A stretch of DNA of 64,000 nt from an uncultured Candidatus Saccharibacteria bacterium (GTDB lineage Bacteria; Patescibacteriota; Minisyncoccia; Phycocordibacterales; UBA2100). The DNA lies in NCBI GenBank assembly GCA_964434285.1, contig CAYSUJ010000004.1, forward strand, positions 18,732-82,731. Reading direction: 5' to 3'. The position numbers and the translations under genes were made by a program. Below, piece by piece: positions 14,453 to 50,587 of the stretch. Below the pieces are notes generated by a model. That model was not told the DNA's origin, did not search any database, and saw nothing but the letters and a program-made list of their open reading frames with translations. How positions within the stretch are numbered: position 1 is the stretch's first letter; each line of letters starts with the position of its first letter.

Positions 14453-14493
14453 TTCCAAAGAAAAAACCGCGTTACGCACGCGGCAGCGGGAGA

Positions 14494-18053: not shown

Positions 18054-18077
18054 AACCCGCCGGAAGGCGGGTTTTTC
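18054..18077 (+). terminator. rho-independent terminator after rplT
   Basis: acccgcc-ggaa-ggcgggt hairpin followed by TTTTT. Confidence 0.7.
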
Positions 18078-32687: not shown

Positions 32688-32694
32688 AAGAAAA

Positions 32695-32880
32695 TTACCA
32701 AGAAGACTTCTTTACGCCTGGGATGTTGCCCTCAAGCGCTTCCTCGCGGAAGCAGATGCGGCAGAGGTTGAAATCACGCATGAAGCCACGTGGGCGGCCG
32801 CACTTGAAGCAACGACGAACCGTGCGCGAAGTGAATTTCGGCGTGCGGTTAGCTTTCACGATCATTGATTTCTTGGCCAT
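32695..32880 (-). CDS. rpsZ: 30S ribosomal protein S14 type Z (zinc-binding)
   Basis: 61 aa with CFKCG...CRIC. Confidence 0.9.
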
Positions 32881-33179
32881 GGAATAGTTTCTAGTTGTTA
32901 GATTTCAGTTGCCAGTTAAAACAGCAACTTAATCTGAATGCCTAAAGGAGAGTTTCGGGGCTTGCACCTTGGCTTTCGCCGAGAGGTTATAGCGTCCCAA
33001 TCCGTGGCCTAGATTCTGGCAGTTTACCCCGAGCGCAGTCGAGGGGTTTCCTCGGCCAGCTGACGTACTTGCTCAAACTCAGACCCCCTATGAGGCTTGG
33101 GCATATTACTTGAGCCTGTTTGAAAAGTCAAAGGGTTGGTGTAATGTCTCGATAGATCCGAATTAGGGGAGAATAGAAC

Positions 33180-33506
33180 ATGTTCTGGAAGACAAAAGCC
33201 CGCGATAACATCAGTTTCGTCTTTGGTTCTAAGGCCGCAAAAGCGCTTCGGGAAATAACGGCTTCATATGGGTTCGACTCTGATGCGCACACGATTCGAA
33301 TGGCACTCACAAGTGCTCGATCATTAATGAACATCGAAAAAGAACGGGGGTGGCAGGTTATTTTGCGGGACGAACTTGGCAACGAGTGGAGTTTTTCGAT
33401 GAAAGACCCCACTAAGGCGTTTCCCATAGGAACGCACAAGGCCCCGCCCCCGGACAAGCCTCGAGCCGTCGGAAATGTCATTCATTTCGACTTTGGGAAA
33501 CAATAG
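33180..33506 (+). CDS. hypothetical protein (108 aa) with its own terminator
   Basis: GGGGAG ribosome-binding site and a plausible TTGAAA/TAATGT promoter upstream. A strong terminator follows. Confidence 0.35.
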   Translation: MFWKTKARDNISFVFGSKAAKALREITASYGFDSDAHTIRMALTSARSLMNIEKERGWQVILRDELGNEWSFSMKDPTKAFPIGTHKAPPPDKPRAVGNVIHFDFGKQ

Positions 33507-33526
33507 GAGACCGCCACTCCTGTTAA

Positions 33527-33550
33527 GACCGCCTCTCGGCGGTCTTTTTC
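33527..33550 (+). terminator. rho-independent terminator
   Basis: gaccgcc-tctc-ggcggtc hairpin followed by TTTTTC. Confidence 0.7.
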
Positions 33551-33557
33551 TTGCTGC

Positions 33558-33585
33558 TTGACAAATTTATACCAAAATATATATT
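33558..33585 (+). promoter_or_regulatory. sigma70-like promoter for dinJ-yafQ
   Basis: TTGACA-N16-TATATT. The ATG of dinJ is 8 nt downstream of the -10 element, so the transcript is leaderless or near-leaderless. Confidence 0.5.
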
Positions 33586-33592
33586 TGAGTAT

Positions 33593-33865
33593 ATGGCTAC
33601 TACTACCGTACTTTTTAAGACCGATAAGAAATTAAAAGCGGCTGCGCAGGCGACTGCAAAGAAGATGGGCATCCCCTTTTCTGCTCTTCTTAATAACGCG
33701 ATGAGGGAGATTGTCGAGAAACAAGAAGTAACCTTTTCGGCGAAGCCGCTCGTGCCTACTCCCTATTTGAGACGGATATTGGAACAGGGGGAAAAAAATC
33801 TAAAAGAAGGAAGGGTTACTTACTACAACAGTCTTGAAGAGATGCGTGCAGCTCTCGACAAGTAA
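33593..33865 (+). CDS. dinJ: RelB/DinJ-family antitoxin (the listed ORF starts at a TTG at 33551)
   Basis: MATTTVLFKTDKKLKAAAQATAKKMGIPFSALLNNAMREIVEKQEV... Confidence 0.7.
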   Translation: MATTTVLFKTDKKLKAAAQATAKKMGIPFSALLNNAMREIVEKQEVTFSAKPLVPTPYLRRILEQGEKNLKEGRVTYYNSLEEMRAALDK

Positions 33866-33869
33866 CACT

Positions 33870-34133
33870 ATGCGAACTGTTGGTGATAAGGTGTTTAATC
33901 GTCAATACAAAAAGCTTGCCAAATCAATCCAGGATAAGCTGTGGGAACGTCTCGCGCTTCTTATCCAAAACGAATCACATCCCTTGCTGCACGACCATAA
34001 ACTCAATCCGCCATATGATGGCTACCGGAGCATCAATATCACCGGGGACTATCGCCTGGTGTACAAGAAGATGGATGAGGATACTTACTATCTTCGCGCC
34101 ATTGGAACGCATCACCAACTGTACGGATCGTAA
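33870..34133 (+). CDS. yafQ: YafQ/RelE-family toxin (the listed ORF starts at 33834)
   Basis: ...LHDHKLNPPYDGYRSINITGDYRLVYKKMDEDTYYLRAIGTHHQLY. Confidence 0.7.
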   Translation: MRTVGDKVFNRQYKKLAKSIQDKLWERLALLIQNESHPLLHDHKLNPPYDGYRSINITGDYRLVYKKMDEDTYYLRAIGTHHQLYGS

Positions 34134-34263
34134 GGAGGCCGGATGGTGGAGAACAGCGGAAAAATTAGAGCACGCCACGGGCTATCCAAAAATAGAGGCG
34201 GGCATATAGTTCCCCGCAGGTACGGAATGAACCGTACACATTGAGGAAACTAAGGAGGTTCAA

Positions 34264-34713
34264 ATGGCATTACGCAGAGGGTTTATGCTCCTTTGTGCCG
34301 CACTTCTCTTCTCTCTCCCGGCGCACGCAAACTCCTTGGCACCCTTCTCGGGCAGTGGAGGGGCGAGCGGAACGATTCTGCTCGTGGGCAAGTCGAGCGC
34401 GGATCGCGCGAATTGCTCCCGACGCTCAAGTGTCGTCGGGAGCAGTGGGCTCTCGTTCTCGCTCTCGTGCAGCGGCGGACGCGATTTCAACCTTTCATGC
34501 TTGTTCAGTACGACAGGTTCACGCGTGAGCGGGAACTGCAGCGCGGGAATCGCAAGCCTCTCGGGAAGCGGCACCGTGAACGGCAAAGTGATGCAGTTGT
34601 CGATGCAAAGCAGTTTCGGGACGCATGCGTATATGACGATCACGCCGTCGTCGCTCTCGTTCCGATCGCCGGACGCGAAATATGTGAAATCGCTGCAGAT
34701 CAGCAGCCGATAA
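34264..34713 (+). CDS. secreted Ser/Gly-rich small protein
   Basis: Strong ribosome-binding site AAGGAGG. Signal peptide MALRRGFMLLCAALLFSLPAHA. Confidence 0.45.
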   Translation: MALRRGFMLLCAALLFSLPAHANSLAPFSGSGGASGTILLVGKSSADRANCSRRSSVVGSSGLSFSLSCSGGRDFNLSCLFSTTGSRVSGNCSAGIASLSGSGTVNGKVMQLSMQSSFGTHAYMTITPSSLSFRSPDAKYVKSLQISSR

Positions 34714-34729
34714 GACAATTGATACGAGA

Positions 34730-34751
34730 GGGCGGCGCCTGCCGCCCTTTT
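34730..34751 (+). terminator. rho-independent terminator
   Basis: gggcggc-gcct-gccgccc hairpin followed by TTTT. Confidence 0.7.
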
Positions 34752-34947
34752 GAATGGAAAGACCACTCTTGCGAGTGGTCATTCTTCCTTATGCTTTGAG
34801 CGGGAGGGTCAAGTCACTAAGATTTTCCATCGCACTGTGCGCTCGTAAAATCTAAGTGCTTCCTCCCCGGGCTCGCGGTTTTTGCTTCGCAAAAACATCG
34901 CTCCGCCTCTTGCCTGCTGCCGGACAAGAAGAAGTTCTTGTCCTGCG

Positions 34948-35969: not shown

Positions 35970-36827
35970 CTATGCGGCGAGACCGAAGCCTTTAAGGGTG
36001 GCCTGCGCGACCCGCTTGCCGAGCTCCTCGTTCTTGAAGCGCTGGGCGTTGATGTGCGGACCGGAGCCGAAGAAGCCGCTCGAAACCGAAAAGCCGTGCA
36101 CGGTGCCTACCTTGATGGCGGCGAGCACCTCATCCTTCGTCCAGCTGTAGAGGCCGTTCGTCGGATTGCGCATTTCTTCGGCCTGACCGACCAGCTGGAA
36201 GAAGCTGGCTTCCTCCTTGAGGTCGGCGAACGAGAGCGGCTGGTTGTTGTGGTACTTCCAGACGTTGCCACGTTCGATGAGTTCGATCCATGACTCCTCG
36301 GCGGTTGTCGAAACGCCTGCCGAGTAGTTGACCCCGTAGAAGGGCCATGGCGAACCGTCGCTACGACCTTCGTGCATCTGGTGATAGTCGATGCGGCCGA
36401 TGGTCATCTCGTGCTCGATGCCGTCGTGCGGAAAGCGGACACGCACCTTGTCGTGCTCCCAGAACTTTGTCTCCGGGAGATCGCCGAGGCGAACGTACTT
36501 CTCGCGAAGAAGACCGCTTGCGTCGCGCATGGCGGCGTCACGGCGCCTCTCCTCGTCCTTGTCGACCATCTCGATTGACCAGTCACCGGGAACGATACGA
36601 CCGTCCCGAAGCCAGATGGACACTGCACCTTTGCAGTGATAGACGCCGGGCTGTCGCACGAGGACTGGAACACGCGGTATGTAGGTAACGGCGTCGTAGA
36701 AACCGCTGACGATGCCGATGGTGCCGTCGGGGACATTCTTGTAGGTGTCTGTCCACGCACGTCGCTCGGGATCGACCTTGAACATGACCTCGTCGCCAAT
36801 CTGCAGAAGTTCGGAAAGAATCATCAA
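35970..36827 (-). CDS. hypothetical cytoplasmic protein (285 aa) inserted between rplN and rplX
   Basis: Strong ribosome-binding site AGGAGG 7 nt from the ATG. Has its own consensus promoter. GC content is higher than the flanking ribosomal genes. No family recognised. Confidence 0.5.
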   Translation of the reverse strand: MMILSELLQIGDEVMFKVDPERRAWTDTYKNVPDGTIGIVSGFYDAVTYIPRVPVLVRQPGVYHCKGAVSIWLRDGRIVPGDWSIEMVDKDEERRRDAAMRDASGLLREKYVRLGDLPETKFWEHDKVRVRFPHDGIEHEMTIGRIDYHQMHEGRSDGSPWPFYGVNYSAGVSTTAEESWIELIERGNVWKYHNNQPLSFADLKEEASFFQLVGQAEEMRNPTNGLYSWTKDEVLAAIKVGTVHGFSVSSGFFGSGPHINAQRFKNEELGKRVAQATLKGFGLAA

Positions 36828-36886
36828 AGCCTCCTATTTTGAAGTCTTGCATATAAAAGTGGCTTTCTGAGCCACTTTCTATTTAT

Positions 36887-36914
36887 ATTATACTTTATAC
36901 ATGCGATATGTCAA
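36887..36914 (-). promoter_or_regulatory. consensus sigma70 promoter
   Basis: On the minus strand: TTGACA (36914-36909), 16-nt spacer, TATAAT (36892-36887). Confidence 0.55.
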
Positions 36915-41875: not shown

Positions 41876-42484
41876 TTAGCCGCGGATTTCCACGAGTGTG
41901 CCTGGCTTCCCCGGAAGTGCGCCCGAGATGAACATGGTGTTCGTTGCCGCATCCACCTTCATGACCTTGAGGTTTTTGATCGTGATGCGGTCACCGCCCA
42001 TGCGTCCTGCCATGCGCATACCCTTTGCCACACGACCGCCTGCGCGTCCTGCGCCGCCGATAGAGCCCGGTGCACGCTCCTTGTTCTTCTGACCGTGAGA
42101 GCGAGGACCGCCCTTGAAGCCATGGCGCTTGACGACACCTTGGAAGCCCTTACCTTTTGAAATTGCAGAGACAACGACAACATCGCCCTCGGCGAAGTTG
42201 GAGAGGTCGATTGAGGCGCCGCGGTCCATCTTTTCGCTCGTGCGCACCTCGCGCATGTAGCGTACTGAGGGGAGATCCTTAAGGTGGCCCTTCTGCGGTG
42301 CTGAAAGACGGCTCTCGCGGCGGGTGCCGACGCCGAGCTGGAGTGCCTCATAGCCATCCTTTTCGGTGATCTTCGCCTGAGTGACCGTCATCGGTGCAGC
42401 AGTCACGATGGTCACCGCAGAAACGGTGCCTTTGTCATCAAATATCTGGGTCATGCGACCCTTGATACCGAGCATGAATTTCAT
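41876..42484 (-). CDS. rplC: 50S ribosomal protein L3
   Basis: MKFMLGIKGRMTQIFDDKG... Confidence 0.9.
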   Translation of the reverse strand: MKFMLGIKGRMTQIFDDKGTVSAVTIVTAAPMTVTQAKITEKDGYEALQLGVGTRRESRLSAPQKGHLKDLPSVRYMREVRTSEKMDRGASIDLSNFAEGDVVVVSAISKGKGFQGVVKRHGFKGGPRSHGQKNKERAPGSIGGAGRAGGRVAKGMRMAGRMGGDRITIKNLKVMKVDAATNTMFISGALPGKPGTLVEIRG

Positions 42485-42502
42485 AGTTTAAGAATGAAAA
42501 AA

Positions 42503-42523
42503 CCGCGCACTAGCGCGGAAAAA
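42503..42523 (-). terminator. intrinsic terminator/attenuator-like hairpin immediately upstream of rplC
   Basis: On the minus strand: ccgcgc-tagt-gcgcgg followed by TTTTTTCATTCTT, ending 18 nt before the rplC ATG. There is no Shine-Dalgarno sequence in the gap. Confidence 0.5.
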
Positions 42524-42613
42524 TGATGATTCCGAGCCAGTGGTCCGATATGCGGACATGGGTTCTCCTTACGGAGTGGGAGCACTATACATGAGGGCGG
42601 CCGAGGATGCAAA

Positions 42614-43012
42614 TCACGACCCCTCAACTGGCATGGTGTCTCGACGCTTCTTGCGTTGAACAGCGAGAAAGATCCATACGCCGATGATGACAAGGAAGAG
42701 GGCGCCGATGGCGAGCGAGAGCGCATCATATGGCACGGGAGCTGGCGGCTCGTAGATAGGTGCCTCGAAAGGGGCCTCATCGAAGCTGTTTTGTGCCTCA
42801 AGATAATCTTGCGCGCTCCCCTGTTCCTCGGCGCGCGCCGCGAGGGCATCTACTAAGGCATCGAGCTCAGTCGGCGACATTTCTGCAGAGCGCGGATCGG
42901 CCGTGATGTCGGCACGGATGGCTGCGCGGAGGGTATCTTCCCCTTCTTGCGCATAGGCAAAGAGAGGAAGCATGACAAGGAGAAACGCGAATACAGCTCG
43001 AGAGATCACCAT
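42614..43012 (-). CDS. small acidic protein with an N-terminal signal peptide and a C-terminal transmembrane anchor, inserted between rpsJ and rplC
   Basis: MVISRAVFAFLLVMLPLFAYAQEG... and a C-terminal LSLAIGALFLVIIGVWIFLAVQRKKRR. Confidence 0.4.
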   Translation of the reverse strand: MVISRAVFAFLLVMLPLFAYAQEGEDTLRAAIRADITADPRSAEMSPTELDALVDALAARAEEQGSAQDYLEAQNSFDEAPFEAPIYEPPAPVPYDALSLAIGALFLVIIGVWIFLAVQRKKRRDTMPVEGS

Positions 43013-43070
43013 AAAACGATTATAGCTCCCGCGAAGGAGCTACAGCAGACTATCCCCACTCGTGGTCGGG

Positions 43071-43430
43071 CTACATCATCTTTACGTCGATAGAGACGCC
43101 AGAAGGCAAATCTATATTCGTGAGAGCTTCGATCACCTTCCCTTCGGGATTGATGATATCGATCATGCGCTTATGGACGCGCATCTCGAACTGCTCACGC
43201 GAGTCTTTGTCGATGAACGCACCACGGTTCACGGTGTATTTCTTGATGTCGATAGGAAGGGGGACAGGACCAACCACCTTGGCACTGTAGCGGGCGGCGG
43301 TGTCGATGATCTGCTTCACCGACTTGTCCAAAACAGCGTGCTCATAGGCGCGCACCTTAATGCGCAGGCGGTGATCGCCATCTGCCTTCTTGCTCTTGCG
43401 AGCCTTCGCTGCCGTCTTGGTTGCTGTCAT
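43071..43430 (-). CDS. rpsJ: 30S ribosomal protein S10 (with an N-terminal K/A-rich extension)
   Basis: ...RLRIKVRAYEHAVLDKSVKQIIDTA... Confidence 0.9.
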   Translation of the reverse strand: MTATKTAAKARKSKKADGDHRLRIKVRAYEHAVLDKSVKQIIDTAARYSAKVVGPVPLPIDIKKYTVNRGAFIDKDSREQFEMRVHKRMIDIINPEGKVIEALTNIDLPSGVSIDVKMM

Positions 43431-43497
43431 AGAACTCCGGAAGTATGCCTTACTTCGAGGGAAATTGCAAACGTATATTCAGATCGCCCGCCGTTAG

Positions 43498-49993: not shown

Positions 49994-50587
49994 TCAGAGC
50001 GGCTCGTAAGTCGGCTGCTTGGCATGCCCTACCCTGCGCAACTTGGCTTCTACGACGAGCTGATTCAGATAACGCTGGGCGGTGGAATCGGAGACGCGAA
50101 GCAGCTTTTCGACGTCGTCGTTTTTGATTTTTCGTTTTTTGGCAGCGAGCTGCAGGATTTTGTCGAGGCGGGCGCGCTTGCGGAAGCGAATGGCTTCGAG
50201 CGCTTCGCCGAGGCGACTCCGAATGGAAGTGTCGGGAATTGGTGGGGTGGCAGGGGTGGCTGGTTGAGAGGCCGCGGGGGTGGCCGCCGAGGATACGGCG
50301 GCTTTTTCTGTTGGAGCAGGGGTTGGTGGCGGAGTTGGCGCGGAATCTGAAACGGGGGGTGGTTCTGGCTGCGGTGAAGCGGGGGTGGAGTCTGAAACAG
50401 GAGCCGGAGACGCCTCGGGCGTCTCCGGCTCCACTGGAATCTCAATTTCTGGGAGCGGCACTGGTTCAGGCTCGGTGACTGGCGCTACTTCAGAAGAAGA
50501 GGCGCTTACGACTTCAGGCGCACTCTCAGCCGGCGGCGAAGCCGCCGGCACTTCTGCACCCACTTCTTCCCCATCACTCATGCACAA
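49994..50587 (-). CDS. protein with a Pro/Ala/Ser/Glu-rich disordered N-terminus and a C-terminal winged-helix HTH
   Basis: The C-terminus KIKNDDVEKLLRVSDSTAQRYLNQLVVEAKLRRVG looks like a DNA-binding helix-turn-helix. Confidence 0.4.
   Translation of the reverse strand: MCMSDGEEVGAEVPAASPPAESAPEVVSASSSEVAPVTEPEPVPLPEIEIPVEPETPEASPAPVSDSTPASPQPEPPPVSDSAPTPPPTPAPTEKAAVSSAATPAASQPATPATPPIPDTSIRSRLGEALEAIRFRKRARLDKILQLAAKKRKIKNDDVEKLLRVSDSTAQRYLNQLVVEAKLRRVGHAKQPTYEPL

Follow-up and report, generated by a model that had tools for sequence, protein, structure and literature searches.

The DNA analysed here, called the window throughout, is a stretch of 64,000 nucleotides of contig CAYSUJ010000004.1 (assembly GCA_964434285.1) that carries a ribosomal protein gene cluster in which rpsJ and rplC are separated. 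rpsJ, encoding ribosomal protein S10 (43071..43430, minus strand; 119 aa; Pfam Ribosomal_S10, PF00338, E = 9e-31), is followed by the gene for a 132-aa conserved hypothetical protein (42614..43012, minus) and then by rplC, encoding L3 (41876..42484, minus; 202 aa; Pfam Ribosomal_L3, PF00297), whose start, MKFMLGIKGRMTQ, is kept in all relatives. Further 3' lie rplD, rplW, rplB and the rest of the ribosomal cluster, and all of the relevant genes are on the minus strand. A terminator-like hairpin sits between the 132-aa open reading frame (ORF) and rplC. The original prediction, which had noted this hairpin and proposed attenuation control, pointed in the right direction but was incomplete. Our analysis suggests that the hairpin is probably the terminator of a cis-acting transcription attenuation leader of rplC that has its own promoter. 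This leader appears to be a new RNA family, although regulation of this kind is well known, and belongs to a clade of Paceibacteria; these are uncultivated, ultra-small bacteria, and the element has so far been found only among them.

A conserved leader unit directly upstream of rplC

The hairpin, CCGCGC-UAGU-GCGCGG (42518..42503, minus strand), has six G-C pairs and a 4-nt loop and is followed immediately by a run of six U residues (42502..42497), combining the G+C-rich stem, the short loop and the directly adjoining 3' U run of an intrinsic terminator. Its predicted energy by itself is -12.1 kcal/mol. The U run is followed by CATTCTTAAACT (CAUUCUUAAACU in RNA form) and then by the rplC ATG at 42484. 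The distance from the end of the stem to the ATG is exactly 18 nt with the T run counted in, as had been stated earlier, whereas the U7 tract of the earlier description is a U6 run in the window; U7 is present only in relatives L001-L003. The 3' ends of terminated transcripts would be expected near 42497-42495 rather than at 42503. We scanned the window and 30 shuffles of it for perfectly paired stems of 6 bp or more that include at least five G-C pairs, with a run of five or more T beginning no further than 2 nt after the stem. Six sites were found in the window, compared to none in 29 of the 30 shuffles. Two of the other sites (14483..14467 and 18056..18071) are located at gene ends, between or after converging genes. 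Since this hairpin design recurs at gene ends, the rplC hairpin has the form of real terminators in this genome.

A promoter scan combined with conservation revealed a putative leader promoter, TTTGCA-18-TATAGT (42584..42613, minus). The -35 box, TTTGCA (42613..42608), starts directly after the stop codon of the 132-aa ORF and is joined by a variable 18-nt spacer to the conserved -10 octamer TGTATAGT (42591..42584). TTGC and TGTATAGT were invariant in 9/9 aligned loci while the spacer varied; the same boxes were found in L017 and L018, and TTTGCT-17-TATACT in L019. We infer the transcription start of the rplC leader from these boxes. The promoter lies 5' of the terminator and the gene to be regulated directly 3' of it, which is the arrangement of an attenuator. 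The U run and the ATG are 12 nt apart in 10 of the 12 loci with the element (21 nt in L019 and ~195 nt in L014), so that in most loci rplC has no room for a promoter downstream of the terminator. No terminator was found between the ORF stop and the rplC promoter, so that any read-through from upstream would also have to pass this attenuator. The absence of a Shine-Dalgarno (SD) sequence before rplC, also part of the original prediction, was confirmed but is not specific to this site: GGAG or GAGG occurs at -20..-4 of 8/88 crude genes (9%) compared to 10.5% at random positions, and the missing SD is a genome-wide property rather than a local one. A published survey reports the anti-SD motif to be missing from the 16S ribosomal RNA (rRNA) of one Parcubacteria subgroup (PMC9297842).

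As judged from sequence, the hairpin is the 3' module of a unit of ~130 bp that consists of the promoter, two hairpins named P1 and P2, a 12-bp antiterminator and the terminator. P1, CUCC-GUAA-GGAG (42565..42576, minus), shows compensatory double changes at two of its four pairs (CUCC/GGAG to CCUC/GAGG) in three sequences, with 100% of the alignment cells paired. It is an accessory stem, absent from the reduced form of the leader in L018 and L019. P2, GUCCG-CAUAU-CGGAC (42557..42543, minus), lies within a conserved core (42537..42561, minus) that is marked by invariance and covariation and comprises P2, its flanks and a possible extension of P2. The closing pair of P2 switches from G-C to C-G in 5/12 sequences, again with 100% of the cells paired. 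The flanks are invariant, C.AUG on the 5' side and CCA(C/A)UGG on the 3' side, giving the core C.AUGUCC..GGACCA.UGG. The pattern ATGTCC-N6/7-GGACCANTGG occurs a single time in the window, where none is expected by chance. The covariation at two pairs of P1 and one of P2, together with the invariant core, is what would be expected of a sensor domain. In L017 the P2 loop contains an insertion of ~85 nt (L017:1052..1140) with a predicted branched fold of its own, and the rest of that leader is unchanged.

The possible P2 extension would pair CCA (42561..42559) with UGG (42539..42537) and would occupy the start of the antiterminator strand. It was present in the terminator-forced folds of 6/7 sequences folded. 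Because the changes that back it are one-sided, we propose the extension as a putative pairing, one that could plausibly act as an anti-antiterminator and be the likely ligand site.

To examine conservation, we aligned the 170-nt region preceding rplC across all loci. Hardly any variation was seen in the last ~130 nt ahead of the ATG, although the ORF proteins were only 50-80% identical. In L012, L013 and L014 the leader was 100% identical to that of the window, with rplC DNA at 90-92% and the ORF at 78-82%; in L016 the leader was 98.9% identical and the rplC DNA 76.8%. Comparison with related genomes, which had been suggested as a check, showed that the hairpin belongs to a unit that immediately precedes rplC, in the same orientation, in 12/12 distinct Paceibacteria/Kaiserbacteria loci. 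The upstream neighbour of this unit varies and may be the 132-aa ORF, a gene with an IalB domain (L001-L003), a divergent glutaredoxin gene (L017) or unrelated ORFs (L018, a Kaiserbacteria genome, and L019, a Paceibacterota contig, in both of which no ORF homologue adjoins). The element thus stays with rplC where other genes or no ORF homologue precede it, and it does not result from the interruption of the operon by the ORF, which the original prediction had named.

A covariance model built from 11 leaders detected one copy in the window (42583..42482, 124 bits) and one copy before rplC in each of 11 related loci for which the rplC upstream region was available. No other copy was detected in ~130 kb of related DNA, and none in L015 or L009. 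In L015, which lacks the element, rplC does not follow the ORF. In L014 (L014:3397..4066) ~370 nt separate the ORF from the leader promoter and, as above, ~195 nt separate the U run from rplC. In viral contigs the terminator pattern had 0 matches, and 68 matches to the core pattern were judged to be chance matches as none scored with the covariance model.

The leader was also detected in public protein sequences. In L012, L006, L004 and L016 an ORF that opens in the leader is fused in frame to rplC, and public gene callers consequently report a 227-aa 'L3' with the extension MSAYRTTGSESSFFRASARFFHS.. at its N-terminus. L3 was over-extended by 21-31 residues (25 in the 227-aa calls) in the sequences P0021, P0023, P0024, P0027, P0047, P0089 and P0102, and at loci L004, L006 and L012. 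These proteins begin at the AUG within the leader RNA (MSAYRTTG...RASARFFHS), a systematic mis-annotation in the clade, and the leader AUG explains this recurrent error. Through such translated extensions the leader could be followed in L3 lineages down to ~74% protein identity. They supplied four more P2 variants, all of them compatible with the G-C to C-G switch: codon 3 for A or E is accompanied by codon 5 for R, and codon 3 for P or Q by codon 5 for G. A protein search with the translated leader peptide returned no candidates.

Competing helices and the proposed switch

The strand 3' of P2, CACUGGC-U-CGGAA (42542..42530), is complementary to UUCCG-C-GCUAGUG (42520..42508), and the two form an antiterminator of 12 bp with one central mismatch (42508..42542, minus). 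The second strand extends through the 5' arm and loop of the terminator as far as the first base of the 3' arm, making the two helices mutually exclusive. The minimum free energy fold of the leader contained the antiterminator and not the terminator (-30 kcal/mol, z = -3.4). All eight leaders that were folded up to the terminator loop gave P1 (where present), P2 and the antiterminator; this fold is informative because that portion of the RNA exists before the 3' arm is transcribed. The RNAalifold consensus independently contained P1, P2 and the antiterminator. The terminators of two distant loci, L018 (GCCCUC-GGCCG-GAGGGC) and L019 (CUCCGC-CGUUGC-GCGGAG), are unrelated to that of the window, and yet the upstream strands, GGUCUGGGG in L018 and CAAUGGUCGGG in L019, pair with the 5' arm and loop of their own terminator. 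The L018 antiterminator has a single central mismatch like that of the window, whereas the L019 helix is broken by a small hairpin within it. The duplexes were stronger than those of shuffled upstream strands, with p = 0.001 (window), p = 0.03 (L018) and p = 0.046 (L019). The antiterminator is therefore maintained in three unrelated versions of the terminator. In the window the terminator-forced fold (-26.6 kcal/mol) and the antiterminator fold (-26.4 kcal/mol) were nearly equal in energy, and the two states were close in the window's clade. With the exclusive antiterminator partner, the conserved promoter upstream and the conserved, covarying leader, the attenuation that had been proposed from the hairpin, the last piece of this unit, gains support.

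We propose that the leader probably tunes the transcription of the main ribosomal protein operon as follows. The TTTGCA-18-TGTATAGT promoter would start a leader of about 90-95 nt, in which P1 and P2 would fold during synthesis. The strand just 3' of P2 (CACUGGCUCGGAA) would then pair with the 5' arm and loop of the terminator, and this antiterminator, which we take to be the default state, would let RNA polymerase into rplC-rplD-rplW-rplB and onward. A trans-acting factor bound to the invariant P2 core would hold the start of the antiterminator strand in the CCA/UGG extension, upon which the G+C-rich hairpin and U6 would form and transcription would stop 18 nt before rplC. Transcripts from rpsJ and the small ORF would pass the same gate. 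If the element is an attenuator, there is a roughly even chance that its ligand is a ribosomal protein encoded by the operon. By analogy with known leaders, the most likely candidate would be a surplus protein encoded downstream, with L4 favoured by precedent and L3 by proximity.

Several observations weigh against this proposal. In L017, L018 and L019 predicted stability strongly favoured the terminator state over the antiterminator, so the balance of energies is not uniform across loci. The ~195 nt in L014 imply that tight spacing between U run and rplC is not obligatory. There are only about three independent sequence classes, and formal column-wise covariation for the terminator and antiterminator is weak; realignment with the covariance model left the L018 and L019 terminators out of register, making the terminator columns uninformative. 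With so few classes the argument for a switch rests on the per-sequence folds, which were used together with the shuffles. Furthermore, the P2 core had no sequence or hairpin resemblance to 16S, 23S or 5S rRNA of E. coli, a comparison that did not include the rRNA of the lineage itself. Autogenous leaders usually bind their ribosomal protein by imitating its rRNA site. Two candidates for rRNA mimicry from the motif, fuzzy and hairpin searches were rejected: the sole hairpin with a YAUA loop (E. coli 23S ~158-173) has an unrelated stem, and the match of GACCAAGGG...CCUGUCC at E. coli 23S ~1302-1320 has its halves in reverse order.

The element could also act without a ribosomal protein. The invariant AUG may be a real start, in which case a ribosome on a near-leaderless mini-ORF would mask the antiterminator and shut off the ribosomal protein operon with no protein or metabolite ligand, in bacteria without SD initiation, or the core may be an aptamer for a growth-rate signal; we consider this pair of options unlikely. 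In its general form, a riboswitch would sense a small molecule or an alarmone, with the P2 core as aptamer and the terminator and antiterminator as expression platform. A conserved core followed by competing helices is indeed the architecture of transcriptional riboswitches, the invariant bases cluster at one small hairpin and its flanks, and no mimicry of rRNA was found in the comparison with E. coli. However, a selective aptamer would be expected to be larger than this core of only ~25 nt and one hairpin, no Rfam riboswitch family was matched even at E <= 10, and the element was found only upstream of rplC, once per genome fragment. Its position before a ribosomal protein operon is a classic hallmark of protein-binding leaders (PMC7247131), and a riboswitch is unlikely.

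The AUG itself (42559..42557) suggests attenuation by a translating ribosome. It would open a tiny upstream ORF, and the ribosome on this ORF would decide whether the antiterminator forms, so that translation capacity would be sensed directly. The AUG is invariant in 12/12 leaders, lies 11 nt after the -10 box in L018 and L019, the same spacing as at the rpsJ start, and has GGAG or GAGG at an SD-like distance before it in the window's clade. L001, L008, L018 and L019 have a three-codon ORF, AUG UCC CNA UAG, and a ribosome at its stop would cover the antiterminator strand. However, the three codons of these four loci become 16 in L017 and 23 in the window, where the stop lies 3 nt before rplC, and in the four loci with in-frame fusions (L012, L006, L004 and L016) the ORF continues into rplC; in the P0089 variant the UAG is an Arg codon. 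A long ORF through the terminator would act in the opposite way to the three-codon version, and the genome is one without SD usage. All three codon positions are equally invariant, which fits a constraint at the RNA level rather than the protein level. Ribosome-mediated attenuation is improbable. A leader-peptide attenuator of the Leu/Trp type was rejected because the length and frame of the ORF are not conserved between clades. The Rfam Leu_leader family was likewise rejected, as its match (12.4 bits vs a gathering score of 50) aligns to the terminator only.

A free-standing small RNA gene, with promoter, ~90-nt RNA and terminator, could act in trans and be upstream of rplC by chance. Having both a promoter and a terminator, the unit is complete in itself, and the L014 copy, far from both rplC and the ORF, is nevertheless 100% identical to that of the window. 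Against this, the element precedes rplC in the same orientation at all 12 loci, usually with the 12-nt spacing given above; a built-in antiterminator makes sense only if read-through matters; and there was no match to the signal recognition particle RNA, 6S or another Rfam RNA. Since the essential rplC operon in most loci would have no promoter but that of the leader, we regard a small RNA gene as quite improbable. Finally, a plain, unregulated terminator of the rpsJ-ORF transcript, brought in with an insertion that interrupts the operon, would fit a hairpin of bona fide form 3' of the ORF and on its strand with no other terminator between, but is highly improbable given the conserved promoter between ORF stop and hairpin, the presence of the hairpin at rplC in loci that lack the ORF or have it far away (L001, L017, L018 and L019), its absence behind the L015 ORF, which has no rplC next to it, and the 90 nt upstream of it, which are more conserved than coding DNA.

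The 132-aa gene, rpsJ and other breaks in the ribosomal cluster

The 132-aa ORF was found to have 19 homologues among metagenomic proteins (47-100% identity, 128-139 aa), one of which is named 'Parcubacteria group bacterium' and another of which is in a Candidatus Paceibacterota metagenome-assembled genome. The signal peptide and anchor that had been predicted for this protein are shared by the homologues. The N-terminus is a conserved signal peptide (..LPLFAYA/QE, ending ..A-x-A/Q in the alignment), followed by an acidic helical ectodomain with many invariant residues, a proline-rich linker, a transmembrane helix and a basic QRKKRR tail. The protein had no Pfam match. Residues 101-123 (42614..42700, minus) gave a sub-threshold match to NF041738 GG_III-CTERM (E = 0.01, 15.7 bits vs a cut-off of 22), which covers the transmembrane helix and basic tail and hints at an anchor resembling a C-terminal sorting signal. 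An AlphaFold2 model was all-helical and of low confidence (pLDDT 71.5, pTM 0.34). A profile search with the ORF alignment returned one genome locus and two metagenome loci. The ORF was located 3' of rpsJ in every locus that shows both genes, with one intervening gene or a gap in L001-L003. On this comparative evidence the ORF is a real, lineage-specific gene.

The spacer between rpsJ and the ORF contains a conserved hairpin, UAGCUCC-N4-GGGAGCUA (43021..43044, minus), with compensatory stem changes among relatives (tagctcc/gggagcta, tagcttcc/gggagcta and tagccccc/gggggcta). Its 3' arm overlaps a TATAAT/TATACT box (43024..43019) that ends 6 nt short of the ORF ATG, and a second conserved motif, GGGGATAG, lies at 43057..43050 (minus). 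The hairpin and box could terminate rpsJ transcripts weakly, drive a leaderless mRNA of the ORF, or do both. An extra, clear hairpin is present directly 3' of rpsJ in L004, L008 and L015, flanked in L008 by A and U runs. rpsJ is preceded by TTTGCA-17-CATACT (~43471..43466 and 43447..43442), with CATACT ending 11 nt before the ATG; these boxes are kept in 11 loci in variable surroundings. The distances of 11 nt (rpsJ) and 6 nt (132-aa ORF) between promoter-like box and ATG suggest very short or absent 5' leaders.

Since rpsJ and the 132-aa ORF have promoter-like boxes of their own, the classical S10 operon appears to be split into rpsJ, the membrane-protein gene and a unit of leader, rplC and the genes that follow, and the three are probably separate or semi-separate transcription units. 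The uncoupling of rpsJ from rplC, the second option of the original prediction, is supported by the promoter of rplC, by the conserved boxes of the two genes upstream and by the terminator that follows rpsJ in some relatives.

In L001 (4389..6150), and also in L002 and L003, the small ORF is separated from the rplC leader by a 349-aa gene and the IalB-domain gene. These three are the most distant of the ORF-bearing relatives, and the two added genes mark the gap between rpsJ and rplC as a recurrent insertion site in the clade. Elsewhere in the window, rplN and rplX are separated by a 285-aa ORF (35970..36914, minus) that matched neither Pfam nor NCBIfam. It is preceded by a perfect TTGACA-16-TATAAT (36914..36887) and has AGGAGG directly before its TTG start; as this promoter and AGGAGG are atypical for the genome, the ORF may be a recent insertion. 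The cluster is broken again between rpsH and rplE by a 2.2-kb stretch (32688..34947) whose ORFs are mostly on the plus strand; this stretch also has a strong hairpin and T run (33527..33544, plus). A strong G+C-rich hairpin with T5 was also observed at 50283..50302 (plus), inside a minus-strand ORF (49994..50587).

Comparison with known leaders

In E. coli and Bacillus, leader RNAs are well known to exert feedback control on ribosomal protein operons, and each lineage has its own RNAs. The Candidate Phyla Radiation (CPR, Patescibacteria) consists of uncultivated bacteria with reduced ribosomes; those analysed here also appear to lack SD initiation. Full-text literature searches turned up no description of a ribosomal leader from the CPR. 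Rfam 15 (4227 families) gave no match at gathering scores in the whole window, and a cmscan of a 200-nt region at E <= 10 gave only trivial, terminator-level matches (Leu_leader at 12.4 bits, sau-6072 and sR17). The rplC leader appears to be a new and solid RNA motif but introduces no new principle. It suggests that these minimal cells keep regulated transcription attenuation together with sigma-70-like promoters. As a compact, bipartite switch of terminator and antiterminator with a sensor of ~25 nt, it is open to testing in vitro without culture.

Among known systems, the S10 leader of E. coli serves the most similar operon; in it, L4 acts with NusA to enhance attenuation and also represses translation (PMC3616713). 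Like the proposed rplC attenuator, this leader has a regulated intrinsic terminator 5' of the genes for L3, L4, L23, L2 and others, and an extra upstream hairpin, which in E. coli is needed beside the terminator; its purpose is feedback by a ribosomal protein (PMC3616713). In contrast, the E. coli leader, which is confined to Gammaproteobacteria, is located before rpsJ and folds into five hairpins (HA-HE) with no antiterminator, whereas the element described here precedes rplC and has one or two hairpins with a terminator and antiterminator. The two share no similarity in sequence or by Rfam. A leader of the E. coli type was also rejected for this operon because the element is upstream of rplC and only ~11 nt separate the -10 box of rpsJ from its ATG, in addition to the absence of an Rfam match.

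The S10 leader of Firmicutes (Yao et al. 2007), since extended to Clostridia (PMC7247131), is, like the rplC element, a leader of the S10 cluster outside Proteobacteria; however, it is located upstream of rpsJ, and the Rfam search detected no similarity to it. A candidate L4 leader from Archaeoglobi (Eckert and Weinberg 2020), rated as uncertain, lies upstream of rplC-rplD-rplW-rplB (PMC7247131). It resembles the present element in being directly before rplC, with S10 not the first gene, and in having a ligand assigned by precedent only (PMC7247131). It differs in being archaeal and in having no reported terminator/antiterminator platform, and it was not matched here by cmscan with Rfam 15.

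The closest mechanistic model for the rplC element is the infC-rpmI-rplT leader of B. subtilis, in which binding of L20 shifts the competition between antiterminator and terminator (PMC1865079). Both are leaders of a ribosomal protein operon with competing helices. The B. subtilis leader serves another operon and another protein, is ~200 nt long, mimics the L20 site on 23S rRNA and has no homology to the rplC leader.

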